Below are positions 4,694 to 34,649 of a DNA stretch of 64,000 nt, piece by piece. The position numbers were made by a program, and so were the translations under genes. Under the pieces are notes generated by a model that worked only from the letters and a program-made list of their open reading frames with translations, was not told the origin of the DNA and did no database searches. The stretch spans positions 376,729 to 440,728 of the forward strand of contig CBDFKV010000006.1 of the NCBI GenBank assembly GCA_965249035.1, given 5' to 3'. Numbering within the stretch: position 1 is the first letter of the stretch; every line of letters starts with the position of its first letter. Origin of the DNA: Candidatus Poriferihabitaceae bacterium (GTDB lineage: Bacteria; Pseudomonadota; Gammaproteobacteria; Arenicellales; Poriferihabitantaceae).

Positions 4694-5509
4694 GTGCGGA
4701 CTATGCCTGAACCCATAGCCGGGCTAATCACCGCTGCTAAGGTTCACCCCGAATGGCAGCCGATTCTGGAAACCGCACTCGGCAAGATGGACACCAATTA
4801 TTTGGCATCCTTGCTTGCAGATAACAGCTGGCTTCCCGGCCAGCAGAATTTGCTCGCCGCCTTTCGGCGTGACCTTCAAGGTACACGGTATATTCTATTT
4901 GGTGAATCACCCTACCCGCGTTCAGAGTCAGCCAACGGTATTGCATTTTATGATGCAGCAGTTGGTAGTTTGTGGTCGGATTCAGGCTTATCGAAAGCGG
5001 TTAATCGTGCTACTTCCTTAAGAAACCTGATCAAAACACTATTGTTGTCCGAAGGTTTACTGAAGCCCGACAGCGCTGGCAAGATATCTCAAGAAAGTAT
5101 CGCCGAGATCGACAAATCTAATCTAATAAACAACATCTATCAATTATTTCAACAATTTGAAATAAAAGGATTTTTAATGTTGAATGCCAGCCCGGTGTTG
5201 CACCTCAACCGTAAACCTCAAGTAGAGGCACGCTATTGGCAGCCTTTTATTCAATGCTTGCTACACGAGCTGCCAAAATACACCAAGCCAGCACCCACTT
5301 TGGTGCTGTGGGGCAAAGTAGCAACAACAATAGAACACATTCCTGCAAGTACTGCTTTTCCGCAATTAACCGCCGAACACCCTTACAATATCTCATTCAT
5401 CCACAACCCCGAGATGCAACACTTATTCCAATCTCTGCAGCTACTAAAATCGTATCGACTTACACGTGGAAATGCCGCGCATGCCGAAAGTATCGCCTAC
5501 GATTGCTGA
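4694..5509 (+). CDS. Uracil-DNA-glycosylase-superfamily protein, an UNG-like paralog with a non-canonical motif
   Basis: 271 aa. The layout resembles family-1 UNG (HPEWQPIL...YL..L...LPG..N.LAAF...). The water-activating loop reads GESPYP where UNG has GQDPYH. Confidence 0.55.
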   Translation: MRTMPEPIAGLITAAKVHPEWQPILETALGKMDTNYLASLLADNSWLPGQQNLLAAFRRDLQGTRYILFGESPYPRSESANGIAFYDAAVGSLWSDSGLSKAVNRATSLRNLIKTLLLSEGLLKPDSAGKISQESIAEIDKSNLINNIYQLFQQFEIKGFLMLNASPVLHLNRKPQVEARYWQPFIQCLLHELPKYTKPAPTLVLWGKVATTIEHIPASTAFPQLTAEHPYNISFIHNPEMQHLFQSLQLLKSYRLTRGNAAHAESIAYDC

Positions 5510-5617
5510 TCTTGCGGGCAGTAAGGAAATAGTAATGGCACATTTTGCTGGAGCGATCCAACTTTGAAGCTTAGATCGATCAATCACCTGATTAAAAGCA
5601 ACTATTTCTCAAGGAGA

Positions 5618-6340
5618 TTAAGCTGGTTTAGCACTTCCTTGTTTGCGATACGCCGAAGAACGTCGATCACCGCCTTTGGGTAGTGGCGCGACAGGCCGCT
5701 TAAGTTGTGCCTGAATCCTTGCTCTAAAATGATCGTCGCCCAGCACCCAGGACTTATTGGTCATTTCTCTGATTTCTCGTAGCGTCTTGATCGGAATATG
5801 GGCATTGAACAAAGCGCGATAATTGTCAGATCTTTGCTCAGTGTTGCTGCCCAGTTCACTATACAGCGTGTGCGCCGTTATGAATGAACAAGGTTCACCC
5901 AACGCATTACACCTGAAACTCGACCACGGATATTCACCTGGATGATCAACCATCTCAGCGCGAACGGGGTTGCACTCAATATAGCGATAACAAACCAAGG
6001 CGTAGGTATCACAGTCGATCAATGTTGCTTTGTATCGGCCTTCCCAAAGCGTGCCTGTACGTTGATATTTGAAGTTGAAATACTGGACATAACCGCGGCC
6101 AATGGACTGAATCGCTTTGGATAAGCTGCCCTCAGCCTGAGGCGTAATCAGTAAATGCACATGGTTGGTCATCAACACATAAGCGTGTAGCTCGCAGGGA
6201 TATTTCTTAATCGCTTTTTCAAGCAGCTCCAAATACTGGTGATAGTCATCATCAGCAATGAAAATGGGCTCACGATTATTGCCGCGAATAATGACATGTT
6301 GTGGCTGACCGGGTAGGTTGTATCGAGGTTGTCGGGCCAC
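5618..6340 (-). CDS. REP-associated tyrosine transposase (RAYT) / IS200-like Y1 HUH transposase, copy 1
   Basis: 240 aa. It has the HUH motif in MTNHVHLLITP and a downstream Tyr helix YRYIECNPVRA. The N-terminus is PGQPQHVIIRGNNREPIF. Confidence 0.8.
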   Translation of the reverse strand: MARQPRYNLPGQPQHVIIRGNNREPIFIADDDYHQYLELLEKAIKKYPCELHAYVLMTNHVHLLITPQAEGSLSKAIQSIGRGYVQYFNFKYQRTGTLWEGRYKATLIDCDTYALVCYRYIECNPVRAEMVDHPGEYPWSSFRCNALGEPCSFITAHTLYSELGSNTEQRSDNYRALFNAHIPIKTLREIREMTNKSWVLGDDHFRARIQAQLKRPVAPLPKGGDRRSSAYRKQGSAKPA

Positions 6341-6350
6341 AGTGTTTAGC

Positions 6351-6420
6351 TGATTGTTGGAGTCAGGACATGCTAGCGAAGTCAGTCGATAAAATCAATC
6401 GAGTCTGACCCCATTGGTTT
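6351..6420. repeat. ~70-bp REP-like repeat, copy 1, containing a bulged hairpin at 6381-6409
   Basis: In my hand alignment, the 70-nt segment from tgattgttggagtcagg to ccattggttt matches 7647-7716 at about 60 of 70 positions. The hairpin is GTCAG-TCGAT / ATCGA-(GT)-CTGAC. Confidence 0.8.
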
Positions 6421-6799
6421 TCTTTTTGGGATTAGGATTAGAATTATTGATGAGTTCTAGTTCTTGCATCCCACTTTCCATTTTTTCATAAATTTTAGAT
6501 TTTTCTATATGTTCATTAATAAGGGGCATATATTTCTCTTTAATGTTATTGTCTTTAAATAAAATACCTCCAAAATCATTGAATATCTCATTTATAAATA
6601 TTGAGTTTTCATCTGCAAGTGAAAATATAAATATTGTTTTCAATAAAAATTTATTTACTCTTTCTTTTTCATTCTTATAATTCTTTAATTTTATTTTATA
6701 TATCCACCTCCAAATATCTTTTTCATCTGTTTTTGAGAAAAAGTACTCAGGGTAATGCCGAGCAAATAAAGTCAGTATCTTTAGTTTTTGTAGTGTCAT
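6395..6799 (-). CDS. Hypothetical protein (orphan ORF-A, AT-rich)
   Basis: 134 aa, Lys/Asn/Ile-rich, with no motif I recognise. It lies in a visibly AT-rich stretch. Its last codons and stop lie inside the 70-bp repeat. Confidence 0.45.
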   Translation of the reverse strand: MTLQKLKILTLFARHYPEYFFSKTDEKDIWRWIYKIKLKNYKNEKERVNKFLLKTIFIFSLADENSIFINEIFNDFGGILFKDNNIKEKYMPLINEHIEKSKIYEKMESGMQELELINNSNPNPKKKTNGVRLD

Positions 6800-6890
6800 C
6801 TCAGTAGTTCTATATGCATGGTAGAGGGCATGGGTCAGAATTTGTAGGCATCACCGGCGCAGAGGAACCTAAACCATCAAATAGATCAAT

Positions 6891-6920
6891 GAGAATTCCG
6901 GAGAATTCCGGGGAATTCCG
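6891..6920. repeat. 3 x 10-bp tandem repeat g(a/g)gaattccg, each unit carrying a GGAATTCC palindrome
   Basis: Read directly as gagaattccg gagaattccg gggaattccg. It abuts the left 19-bp inverted repeat of RAYT copy 2. Confidence 0.9.
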
Positions 6921-6938
6921 GGGACACAATACTTAATT
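6920..6938. repeat. Left arm of a perfect 19-bp inverted repeat bracketing RAYT copy 2
   Basis: ggggacacaatacttaatt is the exact reverse complement of 7621-7639 (aattaagtattgtgtcccc). This arm overlaps the RAYT stop codon. Confidence 0.9.
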
Positions 6939-7604
6939 ACCACGATCTACCTTCGGCCCGGGCCTCTTCTTTTTCAGATCACGACCTAAACAACGTCCAA
7001 CATGCTCAACAAATCCCACTGTGCCGAGTGGTCTGCCTGTGCGCTCATGTTGCATCAAAAGTTTATCATCCTGCTCAAGCGCGTCGCCTAGATAGGCTCG
7101 CCAATCACCCAAGTCCACAAATCGCTTTTCATAACCCGTGCTGACCAATCCACTAGGGTCAACACCGGCCAAATGCGCATGCACGCTACTCCATCGATAA
7201 TCCCAGGCCTGCTTCACCATCCCAGCTTTAACCGGGTTAAGCTCTACATACGCCAGCGTGTTAAGCAACCAGTGCTCATTCAGAACATACGAACTGAAAC
7301 GACCTTGCCATAAATACCCCGTCCAGCCTTCACGAAAATTAATTCTACGGGTATAACGTCGGTGGACTTCACCCACCGCTCGGCTCAAATTGGATGTCTT
7401 GCTTGGCACCAATACCAGGTGAACATGGTTGGTCATCAGACAATACGCTAGCACCTCTATCCCTTCCTCTGCGCACCATTGTTTGAGCAAAGACAGATAT
7501 GCCTGATAATCGCCTTCGTTAAAGAATACGTCTTGGCGACGATTACCCCGTTGAACAATATGGTGAGGATATTCGGGTAAAACGATTCGTGCGAGTCTTG
7601 GCAT
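6933..7604 (-). CDS. REP-associated tyrosine transposase (RAYT) / IS200-like Y1 HUH transposase, copy 2
   Basis: 223 aa. It has the HUH motif in MTNHVHLVLVP, a Tyr helix AYVELNPVKA, and the N-terminus PEYPHHIVQRGNRRQDVF. It is only distantly similar to copy 1. Confidence 0.8.
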   Translation of the reverse strand: MPRLARIVLPEYPHHIVQRGNRRQDVFFNEGDYQAYLSLLKQWCAEEGIEVLAYCLMTNHVHLVLVPSKTSNLSRAVGEVHRRYTRRINFREGWTGYLWQGRFSSYVLNEHWLLNTLAYVELNPVKAGMVKQAWDYRWSSVHAHLAGVDPSGLVSTGYEKRFVDLGDWRAYLGDALEQDDKLLMQHERTGRPLGTVGFVEHVGRCLGRDLKKKRPGPKVDRGN

Positions 7605-7620
7605 CAGTCGAGTATAACAT

Positions 7621-7639
7621 AATTAAGTATTGTGTCCCC
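7621..7639. repeat. Right arm of the perfect 19-bp inverted repeat bracketing RAYT copy 2
   Basis: Exact reverse complement of 6920-6938. Confidence 0.9.
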
Positions 7640-7646
7640 CGAACTG

Positions 7647-7716
7647 TGATAATTGGAGTCAGCTCATACTAGCAGGGTCAGTCGATCAAATCAATCGAGT
7701 CTGACCCTATTGGTTT
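7647..7716. repeat. ~70-bp REP-like repeat, copy 2, with a bulged hairpin at 7677-7705, followed by 13-bp tandem units ccctattggttt at 7705-7738
   Basis: Aligns to 6351-6420. The segment 7690-7712 is also the exact reverse complement of 8478-8500. Confidence 0.8.
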
Positions 7717-8252
7717 ACCCTATTGGTTTCATTGGTTTCAAAAGGAAATACAAAGGGTAACAATATTTTATCCTCGCTTTCATAAAATTTACGCCAGCTT
7801 TCACCAACTTTACCTGCAAACTCAGTTTCTTTTTGACTGGCAAGAGCAACAGCATCACCCCTACCTGAGTACTTGCTTAAGTTAGCAACCCGAACTAATA
7901 AACAAGCTGTTAGCCCTGTACTCCATTCTTCGTCACTCATTTCGTTCAAATCAAGGAAATACGGCACTCTCAAAATCAGCACTTTTTTTTGGCATATATA
8001 ATTAACATTCATCCGATAATTCCTTAAGACTATTATTTCTTTAATTGCTCCTTCAAGATCGCTCAAGGTAGATTTGCTAATCTTACGAATAACATCGATT
8101 GATTTTGCTAGATGATCCGCAATTTCTCTTTCTTCCGTATCTTGAGATTGCGAAGTTTTAATACTAATCTTACCCACAAGATTAATCTGTGATAAAGAAG
8201 TATTCACAGCTATTTTTAATAGTCGCTCGATGGTGGATTTAACTATTGACAT
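7707..8252 (-). CDS. Hypothetical protein (orphan ORF-B, AT-rich)
   Basis: 181 aa with no recognisable motif. Its C-terminus (ETNETNRVNQ) is encoded by the 13-bp tandem repeat. It is co-oriented with ORF-C, 11 nt upstream. Confidence 0.45.
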   Translation of the reverse strand: MSIVKSTIERLLKIAVNTSLSQINLVGKISIKTSQSQDTEEREIADHLAKSIDVIRKISKSTLSDLEGAIKEIIVLRNYRMNVNYICQKKVLILRVPYFLDLNEMSDEEWSTGLTACLLVRVANLSKYSGRGDAVALASQKETEFAGKVGESWRKFYESEDKILLPFVFPFETNETNRVNQ

Positions 8253-8263
8253 TAAGATGGGCT

Positions 8264-8449
8264 CTAATCAACTGGACGAGAAATTGTGGTTGGTTGACGA
8301 ACGGAAGGCTCCATATAATAAGGCTCAATACTGGTGCGATCAACCGTAAATGCCTCCCATAACCGAATTAATTGCACTGGATACTTAATGATCAAATTTG
8401 CAACTCCACGCCCAATAATGGCGCTTGAAACAGCAGTTCCACCAACCAC
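8264..8449 (-). CDS. Hypothetical small protein (orphan ORF-C)
   Basis: 61 aa with a GTG start. A 7-bp perfect hairpin lies just upstream at 8451-8468. Support for coding is weak. Confidence 0.25.
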   Translation of the reverse strand: MVGGTAVSSAIIGRGVANLIIKYPVQLIRLWEAFTVDRTSIEPYYMEPSVRQPTTISRPVD

Positions 8450-8477
8450 AAGAGGCTCTAAAGCCTCTCTACAATTT

Positions 8478-8500
8478 CAATAGGGTCAGACTCGATTGAT
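8478..8500. repeat. 23-bp inverted partner of the REP-like repeat
   Basis: caatagggtcagactcgattgat is the exact reverse complement of 7690-7712. It lacks the second hairpin arm. Confidence 0.85.
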
Positions 8501-8573
8501 ATTCATCCACGCACTGCATACCCCCGATGACACTAGAGATGATTGTACATCAGGGGCGGGAAGCTAGTCCAGT

Positions 8574-9457
8574 TCAGGCCGTGATCGTGTCGAGTGCCTG
8601 CTGATATTTATCGGCAGTGTGGTTAATGACCTCATCGGGTAGTTTCGGCCCGGGTGCGGTTTTATCCCAGTTCAGTGTTTCGAGGTGGTCGCGGACAAAC
8701 TGCTTGTCGAAGCTTGGCGGACTGGTACCGGTGGCATATTTCTCCGTAGGCCAGAAGCGGGATGAATCCGGGGTCAGTACTTCATCAAGTAAATACAACT
8801 TACCGTCATCGTCGAGTCCGAACTCGAATTTGGTATCGGCAATAATGATGCCTTTGGTGCGGGCATATTCAGAACCGTGCAGATAAATCTGAATACTCAG
8901 ATCACGCACTTTCTCAGCCAGTTTAGTGCCGATCATGTCGCACATGGTGGCGAAATCGATTTCTCATCGTGATCACCGACCGCTGCCTTGGTGGCGGGTG
9001 TAAAGATGGGTTCCGGTAATTGTGCAGCCATTTCCAGATCGGCAGGTAATTCGATGCCGCAAACAGCCCCGGTCGTCTGATAATCTTTCCAGCCAGAACC
9101 AATCAGGTAGCCGCGCACAACGGCTTCAACCGGTAACGGTTGTAAACGTTTGACTACGATGGCGCGTTCGCCTATTTCGGCACGTTCCACCGGTTTAGTG
9201 ATAACCGTTGTGAGGTCCAGATCGCTAAGGTGATTCGGTACGATACTAACGGTGCGGTCAAACCAGAAATTTGACAGCTTAGTCAGCACAGCGCCTTTAC
9301 CGGGAATCGGGTCAGGCAGAATGACGTCGAAGGCAGACAGGCGATCAGTGGTGACGATGAGTAAATGCTCATCATCCACGGAATAAATATCCCTGACTTT
9401 GCCCTGATTGATTTTTTCCAGACCAGATAAATTTGATTCGTAAAGTGCGCTGCTCAT
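8574..9457 (-). pseudogene. purC: SAICAR synthetase (long-form PurC) split by a 1-nt frameshift; may be a sequencing artefact
   Basis: The N-terminal ORF is 8933-9457 (KVRDIY...TDRLSAFD) and the C-terminal ORF is 8574-8945 (ADTKFEFG...LTPDSSRFW). Adding one A to the AAA run (plus-strand TTT at 8960-8962) restores ...[17 protein letters not shown]... in one frame. Confidence 0.85.
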
Positions 9458-24468: not shown

Positions 24469-24511
24469 CGATTTGCCCTCGTAGTAGTTTTACCCGCCTC
24501 TATTACACAAT

Positions 24512-25733
24512 GAGACCTCAGCATAACCGCGGGGTTTGATTGGTCTTGAAGAAATATCCTGAAAATTCTAAAAAATTAGCGAAATAAATCATTTTTATCA
24601 ACATACTCGGCCTAATATTGCGATATCCGTCGCTTTTCGGCATTTTTCTTCAATTCTAGACACAACTATCCCGCGTAACCGACATCGGGCAAACCATAAA
24701 GCATCAGAAATTTTGCGCCTTTACGTATATTGGACGCCATCGCTGCAATCCCGTAAGACGTTATATTCTTCGCTAGCCCCATATAGCGAGTTCTCGCTAA
24801 ACCATAGTGTTGCTTATAGGTTGCAAAGGGGCGTTCACCGCCAGAGCGTGTAACGGCAATCTGTGCATTACGTTTTTTATCCGACTCTGACAATGGATTA
24901 TTTCGATAGCCTTTTCGTTGGACCTGATCTTCAATCCCCAAGCCTTTTAGCTTAGTCCGCGTCTCTTCAGAGCTATAGGCAGAATCTGCAAATAACGCCG
25001 CCTCATCTCCTAACAATAAGGTATCGCGTTCCTGACTATCATGCACATTGCCAGCCGTGACATTTTGACGATGAATAAATCCATCTTCGTCCACGCCTGT
25101 ATGAACTGAATAACCGTAGGTGGACTTTGCTCGGCCACGACTGTCTTTCTTTACATGCCAGTCTGCTTCCTGATCACGCGTAGGCTTACCCTCTTTATTC
25201 TTACCTGAACCAGATTGAGCCGCCTCAATGGGCGTTGCATCTATGATGTTAATGCGCCCTTCGGTCATAATAATATTCTTAGATTCAAGTTGGCGGTTAA
25301 TCTCACCCAATAATTTATCCCATAAGTCATGTTCAACGAGGTTGTTGCGAAAACGCCCCAAGGTAGAAGCTTCTGGCACCTCTGCACCTAACTCAAGATG
25401 GCAAAATTTGCGAAATAATAGATCACGATAAAGACTTTGCGCCAACTGAACGTCTGATAGTTTGTACCATACGCCAAGCAACAAACTTCGAAACAGCGTC
25501 AGCAACGGATAACTCGGATGACCCGTGCTAGAACCATAGATTGAAGACATCAGACTTTCTAACTCCGACCAATCCAATAATGCCTCTGTATCGTCTAGCG
25601 AGCACAAAATAGGGTGACTCATCTCCGCGCTAGAAACAAATAGTCTGGGCTGTGTTGTGAATGATTTTTGCATGCCTGATTATAACATTTAGCAACTATT
25701 CGGTGAAGATTGGCTGAGTTGTGCTGAGGTCTC
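24512..25733 (-). mobile_element. IS5-family insertion sequence, complete copy 1
   Basis: The termini gagacctcagcataac (24512) and gttgtgctgaggtctc (to 25733) are inverted, 15 of 16 nt. The direct repeat ACAAT lies immediately outside both ends (24507-24511 and 25734-25738). Confidence 0.85.
24666..25673 (-). CDS. IS5-family DDE transposase
   Basis: 335 aa, colinear with my memory of the IS5 Tnp (YPLL.LFR...L..WY.LSD, IDAT.IEA, ADSAY, ERPF...K). Confidence 0.9.
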   Translation of the reverse strand: MQKSFTTQPRLFVSSAEMSHPILCSLDDTEALLDWSELESLMSSIYGSSTGHPSYPLLTLFRSLLLGVWYKLSDVQLAQSLYRDLLFRKFCHLELGAEVPEASTLGRFRNNLVEHDLWDKLLGEINRQLESKNIIMTEGRINIIDATPIEAAQSGSGKNKEGKPTRDQEADWHVKKDSRGRAKSTYGYSVHTGVDEDGFIHRQNVTAGNVHDSQERDTLLLGDEAALFADSAYSSEETRTKLKGLGIEDQVQRKGYRNNPLSESDKKRNAQIAVTRSGGERPFATYKQHYGLARTRYMGLAKNITSYGIAAMASNIRKGAKFLMLYGLPDVGYAG

Positions 25734-33401: not shown

Positions 33402-33444
33402 TCAAGTTTGAACTTCTATACCTGAGCAACTTAAACAACTGAAT

Positions 33445-34649
33445 GAGACCTCAGCATAACCGCGGGGTTTGATTGGTCTTGAAGAAATATCCTGAAAATT
33501 CTAAAAAATTAGCGAAATAAATCATTTTTATCAACATACTCGGCCTAATATTGCGATATCCGTCGCTTTTCGGCATTTTTCTTCAATTCTAGACACAACT
33601 ATCCCGCGTAACCGACATCGGGCAAACCATAAAGCATCAGAAATTTTGCGCCTTTACGTATATTGGACGCCATCGCTGCAATCCCGTAAAACGTTATATT
33701 CTTCGCTAGCCCCATATAGCGAGCTCTCGCTAAACCATAGTGTTGCTTATAGGTTGCAAAGGGGCGTTCACCGCCAGAGCGTGTAACGGCAATCTGTGCA
33801 TTACGTTTTTTATCCGACTCTGACAATGGATTATTTCGATAGCCTTTTCGTTGGACCTGATCTTCAATCCCCAAGCCTTTTAGCTTAGTCCGCGTCTCTT
33901 CAGAGCTATAGGCAGAATCTGCAAATAACGCCGCCTCATCTCCTAACAATAAGGTATCGCGTTCCTGACTATCATGCACATTGCCAGCCGTGACATTTTG
34001 ACGATGAATAAATCCATCTTCGTCCACGCCTGTATGAACTGAATAACCGTAGGTGGACTTTGCTCGGCCACGACTGTCTTTCTTTACATGCCAGTCTGCT
34101 TCCTGATCACGCGTAGGCTTACCCTCTTTATTCTTACCTGAACCAGATTGAGCCGCCTCAATGGGCGTTGCATCTATGATGTTAATGCGCCCTTCGGTCA
34201 TAATAATATTCTTAGATTCAAGTTGGCGGTTAATCTCACCCAATAATTTATCCCATAAGTCATGTTCAACGAGGTTGTTGCGAAAACGTCCCAAGGTAGA
34301 AGCTTCTGGCACCTCTGCACCTAACTCAAGATGGCAAAATTTGCGAAATAATAGATCACGATAAAGACTTTGCGCCAACTGAACGTCTGATAGTTTGTAC
34401 CATACGCCAAGCAACAAACTTCGAAACAGCGTCAGCAACGGATAACTCCGATGACCCGTGCTAGAACCATAGATTGAAGACATCAGACTTTCTAACTCCG
34501 ACCAATCCAATAATGCCTCTGTATCGTCTAGCGAGCACAAAATAGGGTGACTCATCTCCGCGCTAGAAACAAATAGTCTGGGCTGTGTTGTGAATGATTT
34601 TTGCATGCCTGATTATAACATTTAGCAACTATTCGGTGAAGATTGGCTG
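33445..34649 (-). mobile_element. IS5-family insertion sequence, copy 2, lacking the terminal ~17 bp at the transposase-proximal end
   Basis: It is colinear with copy 1 from gagacctcagcataac up to gattggctg, then diverges into the IS66-like end. The second IR is absent. Confidence 0.85.
33599..34606 (-). CDS. IS5-family DDE transposase (3 aa differences from the copy at 24666-25673)
   Basis: Direct comparison of the two 335-aa translations shows P/R at residue 53, and T/A and S/F near the C-terminus. Confidence 0.9.
   Translation of the reverse strand: MQKSFTTQPRLFVSSAEMSHPILCSLDDTEALLDWSELESLMSSIYGSSTGHRSYPLLTLFRSLLLGVWYKLSDVQLAQSLYRDLLFRKFCHLELGAEVPEASTLGRFRNNLVEHDLWDKLLGEINRQLESKNIIMTEGRINIIDATPIEAAQSGSGKNKEGKPTRDQEADWHVKKDSRGRAKSTYGYSVHTGVDEDGFIHRQNVTAGNVHDSQERDTLLLGDEAALFADSAYSSEETRTKLKGLGIEDQVQRKGYRNNPLSESDKKRNAQIAVTRSGGERPFATYKQHYGLARARYMGLAKNITFYGIAAMASNIRKGAKFLMLYGLPDVGYAG

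Follow-up and report, generated by a model that had tools for sequence, protein, structure and literature searches.

Neighbouring TIRtron-family ends most likely account for a perfect 23-bp inverted repeat around two orphan reading frames

Does a perfect inverted repeat that encloses two orphan genes delimit a mobile unit, or can it arise where the ends of separate elements come to lie face to face? The question is raised by positions 7690 to 8500 of a 64,000-nucleotide stretch from Candidatus Poriferihabitaceae bacterium (assembly GCA_965249035.1, contig CBDFKV010000006.1, positions 376,729 to 440,728 of the forward strand; hereafter the window, meaning this whole stretch), where two 23-bp arms bracket the open reading frames (ORFs) ORF-B and ORF-C. 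A reading made from the sequence alone had likened these 811 bp to a REPIN or a MITE (a miniature transposable element with inverted repeats) whose spacer had been replaced by cargo.

Here, we identify the repeat in the arms as a terminal inverted repeat (TIR) of the TIRYT/TIRtron kind, compare the orientation of the pair with that of its relatives in other genomes, and conclude that the 811 bp are probably DNA between neighbouring TIRtron-family elements rather than a mobile unit.

The arms are copies of a widespread transposon end

The inverted repeat is real: ATCAATCGAGTCTGACCCTATTG at 7690-7712 (plus strand) and the sequence at 8478-8500 (minus strand) are exact reverse complements, with no mismatches by direct reading and by search. 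A third copy of the 23-mer lies at 6394-6416 (plus strand) with one mismatch, and 100 dinucleotide-preserving shuffles yielded no match at up to three mismatches. Searches and a position weight matrix (PWM) scan detected no further copy of the 23-mer or its TIR within the window, and all three copies are confined to 2.1 kb of its 64 kb. As the sequence-only reading had it, the arms hold ORF-B and ORF-C and nothing else, in 765 bp, and the right arm is a solo copy, located downstream of purC, 74 nt from its stop codon. That reading also took the left arm for the distal half of a REP-like repeat; it is indeed the distal half of a hairpin (7674-7708; single-stranded DNA fold z = -2.9), its partner being an inner partial inverted copy at 7674-7686, but it is not a classical G+C-rich GTAG repetitive extragenic palindromic (REP) sequence.

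Both arms are copies of a 25-bp TIR with the consensus ATCAATCGAGTCTGACCCCATTGAT, which we term the type-1 TIR. Its 18-mer core ATCAATCGAGTCTGACCC occurs in at least 119 genome stretches (exact scan, one genome per species), carried by Gamma-, Beta-, Zeta- and Alphaproteobacteria and Electrothrix, and also by single contigs of metagenome-assembled genomes labelled Bacteroidota, Bdellovibrionota, Omnitrophota and Gemmatimonadota, for which bin contamination is possible. A mismatch-tolerant scan with the 25-mer returned 325 matches in the fetched loci and the window versus none in mononucleotide shuffles. The TIR core had no match in IMG/VR viral contigs, an Rfam scan of positions 5000-9000 at E ≤ 1 returned nothing, and a literature search with the literal repeat sequence gave unrelated matches only.

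The suspicion that this repeat family is tied to a transposase proved correct, as two Y1_Tnp genes (RAYT-1 and RAYT-2) adjoin the copies in the window and homologous genes are bordered by this sequence in many genomes. Among the 18-mer matches listed, RAYT-1 homologues (54-64% identity) lie between two TIR copies in about 15 loci, and the loci L200, L201-203 and L204, found independently by protein similarity (67-74% identity), have the same TIR-gene-TIR layout with one to four TIR mismatches. In this layout the 5' copy precedes the start codon by about 55-65 nt, the 3' copy lies at or just past the stop codon, and the CCCC ends of both TIRs face outward. The window copy at 6394 (copy a) is placed and oriented accordingly, 53 nt upstream of the RAYT-1 start codon. 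The outer end of the consensus, GGGGTCAG, fits GGGGWSAS, and the two arms (copies b and c) read AGGGTCAG, with one deviation. The layout is that of the published TIRtrons: TIRYT genes, which encode Y1/HUH transposase-like proteins, are defined as flanked by TIRs with a common GGGGWSAS (Di Nocera et al. 2013, PMC3733652) and are equated with TnpA-Y1 subclass 2.1 (Quentin et al. 2018, PMC6006769).

We observed that the 25-bp TIR is nearly invariant across very distant lineages while the associated TIRYT proteins are just 54-74% identical, which points either to a DNA site under strong constraint or to frequent spread by horizontal transfer. Since the arms are identical over the TIR core alone, which is near-invariant across phyla, their perfect identity needs no recent event. 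The type-1 TIR is also quasi-palindromic, with 19 of 25 positions self-complementary. Copies occur in clusters (L047, L048 and L050), as doublets and as singles; about 46% (80 of 173) have no other copy within 1 kb, and the solo arm beside purC is therefore unremarkable.

A purely local origin, in which the right arm would be a fragment of a duplication or inversion without mobile-element meaning, is unlikely. The presumed source would be an 83-nt direct repeat (6351-6433 and 7647-7729, 81% identical), one copy of which stands upstream of each Y1 gene and which includes the 23-mer and a leader of about 43 nt. Such an origin would suit the presence of three copies within 2.1 kb and no others in 64 kb, and the T variant (CCCTATTG) that copies b and c have in common. 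However, this variant is common in the type-1 family, the identity of the arms ends exactly at the family TIR boundaries with flanks that differ on both sides, solo TIRs are normal in the family, and more than 100 other genomes carry this 25-mer as well.

The pair faces opposite to gene-carrying TIR pairs

We compared the topology of pairs among 176 type-1 TIR copies, taken from the mismatch-tolerant scan of the fetched loci and the window. In 33 pairs the copies diverge (minus, then plus), so that ATCAAT faces inward and CCCCATTG or CCCC outward. Twelve of these pairs carry a gene, at start-to-start distances of 772-825 nt, and 21 are short doublets, at 32-103 nt. Convergent pairs (plus then minus) number eight, the window pair included, with irregular spacings of 105, 492, 549, 641, 786, 820, 1411 and 2058 nt. 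The window pair is thus the mirror image of all 12 gene-carrying pairs and all 21 doublets: its CCCC ends point inward, indicating that the 765 bp lie outside the elements.

What lies inside the other convergent pairs is equally heterogeneous. One holds an ABC-F ATPase between two doublets (L047), one an MFS transporter (L045), one a MazF-type toxin-antitoxin pair (L050, 4830-5495) and one an AT-rich single gene with a weak HEPN_RiboL-PSP match (L061, 844-1688, 820 bp), and in L200 ParE and XRE-type helix-turn-helix genes lie between or beside TIR copies (1177-2351). The contents of the convergent pairs are unrelated to one another. Elsewhere, convergent pairs span 105-2058 bp around ordinary genes. 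The 811-bp unit did not recur in the collections searched: blastn against plasmid and phage collections gave no match, and no second copy of its cargo appeared in protein collections. The flanks of the unit, GTCGATCAA and ATTCATCCA, have no common direct repeat, and hence no target-site duplication was found.

These observations bear on the proposal that 7690-8500 is a non-autonomous composite, MITE- or REPIN-like, with ORF-B and ORF-C as cargo and arms that the nearby Y1 transposase would recognise in trans. The perfect 23-bp repeat, with none expected by chance, and the adjacent transposase genes would be expected of such a composite; binding of a quasi-palindromic TIR could occur either way round, the 786-bp spacing is TIRtron-like, and L061 contains a similar AT-rich single-gene unit (820 bp). 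Against this, the topology is opposite to that of 33 of 33 bona fide pairs, the pair lacks a target-site duplication, the searched collections contain no second copy of the cargo, and the cargoes of convergent pairs are mutually unrelated. We consider a composite of this kind distinctly improbable, and the comparison with a REPIN or MITE whose spacer has been replaced by cargo is not supported.

A cluster of two TIRtron types

Our preferred reading, DNA between neighbouring elements, would place the arms within an island (5510-8573) that is itself a cluster of TIRtron elements. Its parts are a type-1 TIRYT gene, RAYT-1, with its 5' TIR (6394); a second type-1 5' TIR with its leader (7647-7714); a complete type-2 TIRtron behind that leader (6916-7643); and a solo type-1 TIR (8476-8500). 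On this view the left arm would bound one element on its outer side, the right arm would be a solo end separate from it, and the two would meet tail to tail. If the arms are the outer ends of separate elements, the 765 bp with ORF-B and ORF-C are flanking, inter-element DNA.

RAYT-1 scores 77.8 bits against NCBIfam REP_Tyr_transpos, slightly under the 80-bit cutoff, and its HUH motif (H60, H62) and Y120 are invariant in an alignment of 40 relatives. An AlphaFold2 (AF2) model built on this 40-sequence alignment (mean predicted local distance difference test, pLDDT, 88) best matched the Escherichia coli TnpA-REP structure (4ER8, E = 8.7e-9), followed by the structures of IS608 and ISDra2 TnpA (2A6M, 2VJV and 2XQC). 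At 240 aa versus 165 aa for 4ER8, RAYT-1 has an extra C-terminal region for which the model predicts confident helices at 167-213. The C-terminal extension of subclass 2.1 is described as resembling a helix-turn-helix (Bac_DnaA_C, HTH_23 or HTH_28); no Pfam helix-turn-helix match was detected in the RAYT-1 extension, even at E ≤ 10. RAYT-1 has only a 5' TIR in the window, in contrast to homologues that are 54-74% identical to it and have both TIRs (12 loci and L200-L204). Neither the PWM scan nor the shuffled-alignment tests gave significance to a candidate decayed 3' TIR at 5573-5590.

RAYT-2 (6933-7604, 223 aa; Pfam Y1_Tnp E = 1.8e-14) is just 37% identical to RAYT-1. NCBIfam transpos_IS200 reached 21-24 bits against a cutoff of 55, and no tnpB-like ORF is present among the window ORFs. 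The TIRs around RAYT-2 (6916-6939 and 7620-7643) form a 24-nt inverted repeat with 96% complementarity, with none expected by chance, and their outer end GGGGACAC fits the GGGGWSAS of PMC3733652. This type-2 TIR, GGGGACACAATACTTAATT, is conserved in L020, L022, L054 and L201-203, in doublets or around a truncated gene, and lies there about 0.3-2.4 kb from type-1 TIRs, indicating that the two TIR families co-localise. A match to a sigma-70-like promoter (7611-7638, minus strand; GGGACA, 16-nt spacer, TATACT, upstream TG), by consensus only, sits inside the type-2 5' TIR and reads into RAYT-2.

On one side of the type-2 TIRtron (728 bp) are the type-1 5' TIR and its leader (7647-7714), and on the other is what may be a decayed type-1 3' TIR (6829-6839). 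The whole span, 6829-7714, is 886 bp, near the normal length of a type-1 TIRtron, and the layout looks like a nested or replacement insertion. By eye, a 'GGD..AYK' remnant of the type-1 C-terminus may be made out at 6845-6870, which we note as a lead only.

Two putative paralogues were noted elsewhere in the genome, P0003 (253 aa, at least 90% identical to RAYT-1) and P0005 (223 aa, at least 90% identical to RAYT-2). In our reading, P0003 translates the type-1 5' leader as an N-terminal extension. Identity at this level suggests that the elements were duplicated recently, and the two paralogues argue against a single-copy RAYT.

Tandem duplications mark TIR ends

The outer end of the left arm runs into a 13-bp tandem duplication, with units at 7705-7738 reading CCCTATTGGTTTA, CCCTATTGGTTTC and ATTGGTTT, and both the stop codon (TAG at 7707-7709) and the last residues of ORF-B are encoded by the repeat and this duplication, just as the sequence-only reading had described. 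We found that such duplications are not peculiar to this locus. Tandem duplications of 8-16 bp, made of the last TIR bases and a few flanking bases, occur at 36 of 170 type-1 TIR ends versus 3 of 170 controls (for example L029 at 1786 and 2562, and L073 at 733 and 1558), and a type-2 TIR in L022 (~7861) has one as well. Terminal tandem duplication is thus a family-wide hallmark, found at the ends of both type-1 and type-2 TIRs. The available text of PMC3733652 and PMC6006769 contains no mention of it that we found.

By analogy with TnpA-REP and IS608 TnpA, the TIRYT would bind the TIR and nick and rejoin single-stranded DNA at its outer boundary, and the tandem duplications may be the footprint of this nicking and rejoining.

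Orphan reading frames beside the TIRs

ORF-B matched only itself among 5.8 billion protein clusters and in an exhaustive HMMER scan of 1.84 billion representatives, bearing out its description as an orphan; its single-sequence AF2 model (pLDDT 41) was unusable. ORF-A likewise had only its self-match among the 5.8 billion clusters and no Pfam, NCBIfam or PADLOC match, and none of ORF-A, ORF-B and ORF-C had a meaningful match in Pfam, NCBIfam, PADLOC or PHROGs. Comparisons of ORF-B with the L061 cargo and of ORF-A with ORF-B revealed no similarity.

An analogous but degenerate arrangement had been described around ORF-A and is weakly supported. Apart from the three repeat copies, the window contains the octamer GGGTCAGA only at 6832-6839, where its position and orientation suit such an arrangement; neither the PWM scan nor local alignment with shuffled controls lent significance to the remnant at 6829-6839. 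The only window segments below 38% G+C are those with ORF-A (6257-6958, down to 22%) and with ORF-B and ORF-C (7706-8420). Across 157 outer flanks of TIRs, however, the G+C difference was -0.018 versus -0.025 for inner flanks, leading us to reject AT-rich DNA as a general neighbour of TIR outer ends. As the outer deficit is no larger than the inner one, the AT-rich neighbours are peculiar to this locus rather than a trait of the family.

These segments invite the idea of gene capture, in which the HUH enzyme would join foreign single-stranded DNA to a cleaved TIR boundary, in a manner like ISCR/IS91 read-through and loosely like an integron cassette. TIR outer ends would then be sites where short foreign cassettes are captured or exchanged, with ORF-A and ORF-B/C as two examples, each lying between convergent TIR ends and fused to them in frame at its 3' end. 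Both low-G+C segments start at a TIR outer end, ORF-A and ORF-B end inside a TIR or its duplication, a possible decayed TIR lies beyond ORF-A, and accessory genes (HEPN-like, MazF-type and ParE) stand beside TIRs in L061, L050 and L200. Yet the 157 outer flanks have no AT-rich bias over inner flanks, most convergent pairs hold core genes, the ORF-A remnant is statistically unsupported, and the mechanism has not been demonstrated for any TIRYT. We regard capture as very unlikely, and the same holds for the view of these ends as cassette-exchange sites. If it were true, the HEPN-like gene of L061 and the MazF-type pair of L050 would be further TIR-bounded accessory cassettes, and the system would amount to a domesticated Y1 transposase put to use for single-strand capture of an integron-like or ISCR-like kind. 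An inverted repeat produced by chance has no standing at all, given 0 of 100 shuffles with a match at three mismatches and 325 25-mer matches versus none in mononucleotide shuffles.

With the 811 bp read as inter-element DNA, the AT-rich orphan segments (ORF-A and ORF-B/C) would be the remains of a dispensable islet, probably acquired horizontally. TIR elements would have inserted in or beside it, cutting the 3' ends of the ORFs and thereby supplying their stop codons.

Points that weigh against inter-element DNA

Family identity, topology, cargo uniqueness and the clustering of two TIR types are direct observations; several others sit less comfortably with the 811 bp as inter-element DNA. The whole window has two AT-rich segments, each of which starts precisely at the outer end of a TIR, and ORF-A may be bounded by a decayed TIR too, leaving two similar TIR/AT-rich arrangements for which a colonised islet accounts only loosely. 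Measured start to start, the window pair (786) and the L061 pair (820) are spaced within the range of true TIRtrons (772-825). The transposase might tolerate either orientation of its quasi-palindromic TIR, and the argument from topology is purely comparative; to our knowledge, no TIRYT has been tested biochemically. The AT-rich segments, the spacings and the quasi-palindromic TIR leave a small probability for cassette capture or for mobilisation of the pair inside out. Finally, relatives of the ung-like gene at the left edge of the island were recovered in 80 metagenome loci (53-61% identity), 52 of which, at least 3 kb long, had no adjoining purC or other window neighbour and were uninformative on empty sites.

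The island and its flanking genes

The island lies between the ung-like gene and purC, and all its genes are on the minus strand (Table 1). purC is interrupted by a frameshift near 8933-8945, with strong SAICAR_synt matches in both of its ORFs, and is either a pseudogene or the product of a single-base assembly error. If the assembly does contain indel errors, ORF-C and ORF-B could be one gene. Two further repeats in the window are unrelated to the arms: a 300-nt direct repeat (24509-24808 and 33442-33741, 99% identical, 8.9 kb apart) and a 231-nt tandem repeat near the window start (307-768, two copies, 80% identical).

Table 1. Positions of the island features and host flanks within the window
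Feature	Position	Strand	Remarks
ung-like gene, left host flank	4694..5509	+	weak uracil-DNA glycosylase matches
RAYT-1, type-1 TIRYT gene, 240 aa	5618..6340	-	Pfam Y1_Tnp E = 2.8e-15
Type-1 TIRtron 5' leader/promoter region, copy 1	6351..6393	-	inner part of 83-nt repeat
Type-1 TIR copy a	6394..6418	+	5' TIR of RAYT-1; PWM 49.3 bits
ORF-A, 134 aa, ORFan	6395..6799	-	~22% G+C DNA; last 6 codons and stop TIR-encoded
Possible decayed type-1 TIR remnant ATGGGTCAGA	6829..6839	+	orientation of 3' TIR
10-bp tandem triplication GAATTCCGG(A/G)	6893..6924	.	outer end of type-2 TIR
Complete type-2 TIRtron	6916..7643	-	TIRs TTCSGGGGACACAATACTTAATTA tightly around RAYT-2
Type-1 5' leader, copy 2	7647..7689	-	followed by type-2 TIRtron where type-1 gene expected
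Type-1 TIR copy b (left arm)	7690..7714	+	PWM 44.9 bits; hairpin with 7674-7686
13-bp tandem duplication CCCTATTGGTTT	7702..7738	.	two full copies and a partial one, TIR outer end
ORF-B, 181 aa, ORFan	7707..8252	-	C-terminus ETNETNRVNQ* from duplication and TIR
ORF-C, 61 aa, GTG start	8264..8449	-	possibly not a gene
Type-1 TIR copy c (right arm)	8476..8500	-	PWM 44.0 bits; solo
purC (SAICAR synthetase), right host flank	8574..9457	-	two overlapping ORFs

Implications

A perfect inverted repeat is to be expected wherever a strongly conserved transposon end is present in several nearby copies, and the 811-bp stretch does not belong in a list of new mobile elements. TIRYTs are numerous, with at least 7,874 clusters related to RAYT-1, yet are scarcely mentioned in the literature searched. 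The locus and its relatives offer clues to what these enzymes cut and join: a near-invariant 25-bp TIR served by proteins that are only about 55-74% identical, an 8-16-bp boundary duplication in two TIR families, and the clustering of different TIRtron types.

Relation to known systems

Like a MITE or a composite transposon, the window pair brackets an internal segment with an inverted repeat. Its ends point inward, however, it has no target-site duplication and exists as a single copy, and each of its arms is a full 25-bp TIR belonging to a separate element. At best it can be likened to two adjacent insertion sequences in an 'inside-out' configuration. IS200/IS605 elements (IS608, ISDra2) have in common with the window elements the HUH/Y1 core fold and a presumed nicking of single-stranded DNA near small hairpins. 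They differ in that their ends are non-inverted subterminal hairpins, whereas the ends in the window are inverted repeats with no accompanying TnpB.

REPIN-RAYT systems (Bertels and Rainey 2011, PMC3116915; Nunvar 2010, PMC2817692) resemble the window elements in a related Y1 nuclease (4ER8), inverted repeats that flank the gene, and short-spacer doublets. In contrast to these, the window repeats are not G+C-rich GTAG REPs, number three copies in 64 kb, accompany transposases that have paralogues, and belong to a TIR common to distant lineages and not specific to one. The 765-bp spacer and the orientation of the window pair, opposite to all 21 doublets, also set it apart from a REPIN.

The closest match is the TIRtron/TIRYT system. 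It features a Y1/HUH gene longer than E. coli TnpA-REP, long TIRs at fixed distances with GGGGWSAS ends, and TIR copies that are also single, dimeric or clustered, all as found here. The window departs from it in having a type-1 gene with a 5' TIR only and a type-2 TIRtron behind a second type-1 5' TIR and leader, and we found no mention of the cross-phylum invariance of the 25-mer or of tandem duplications at TIR ends in the available text of the TIRtron papers. The arms are genuine ends of a known class of transposon, and the 811-bp stretch is most likely not a unit.

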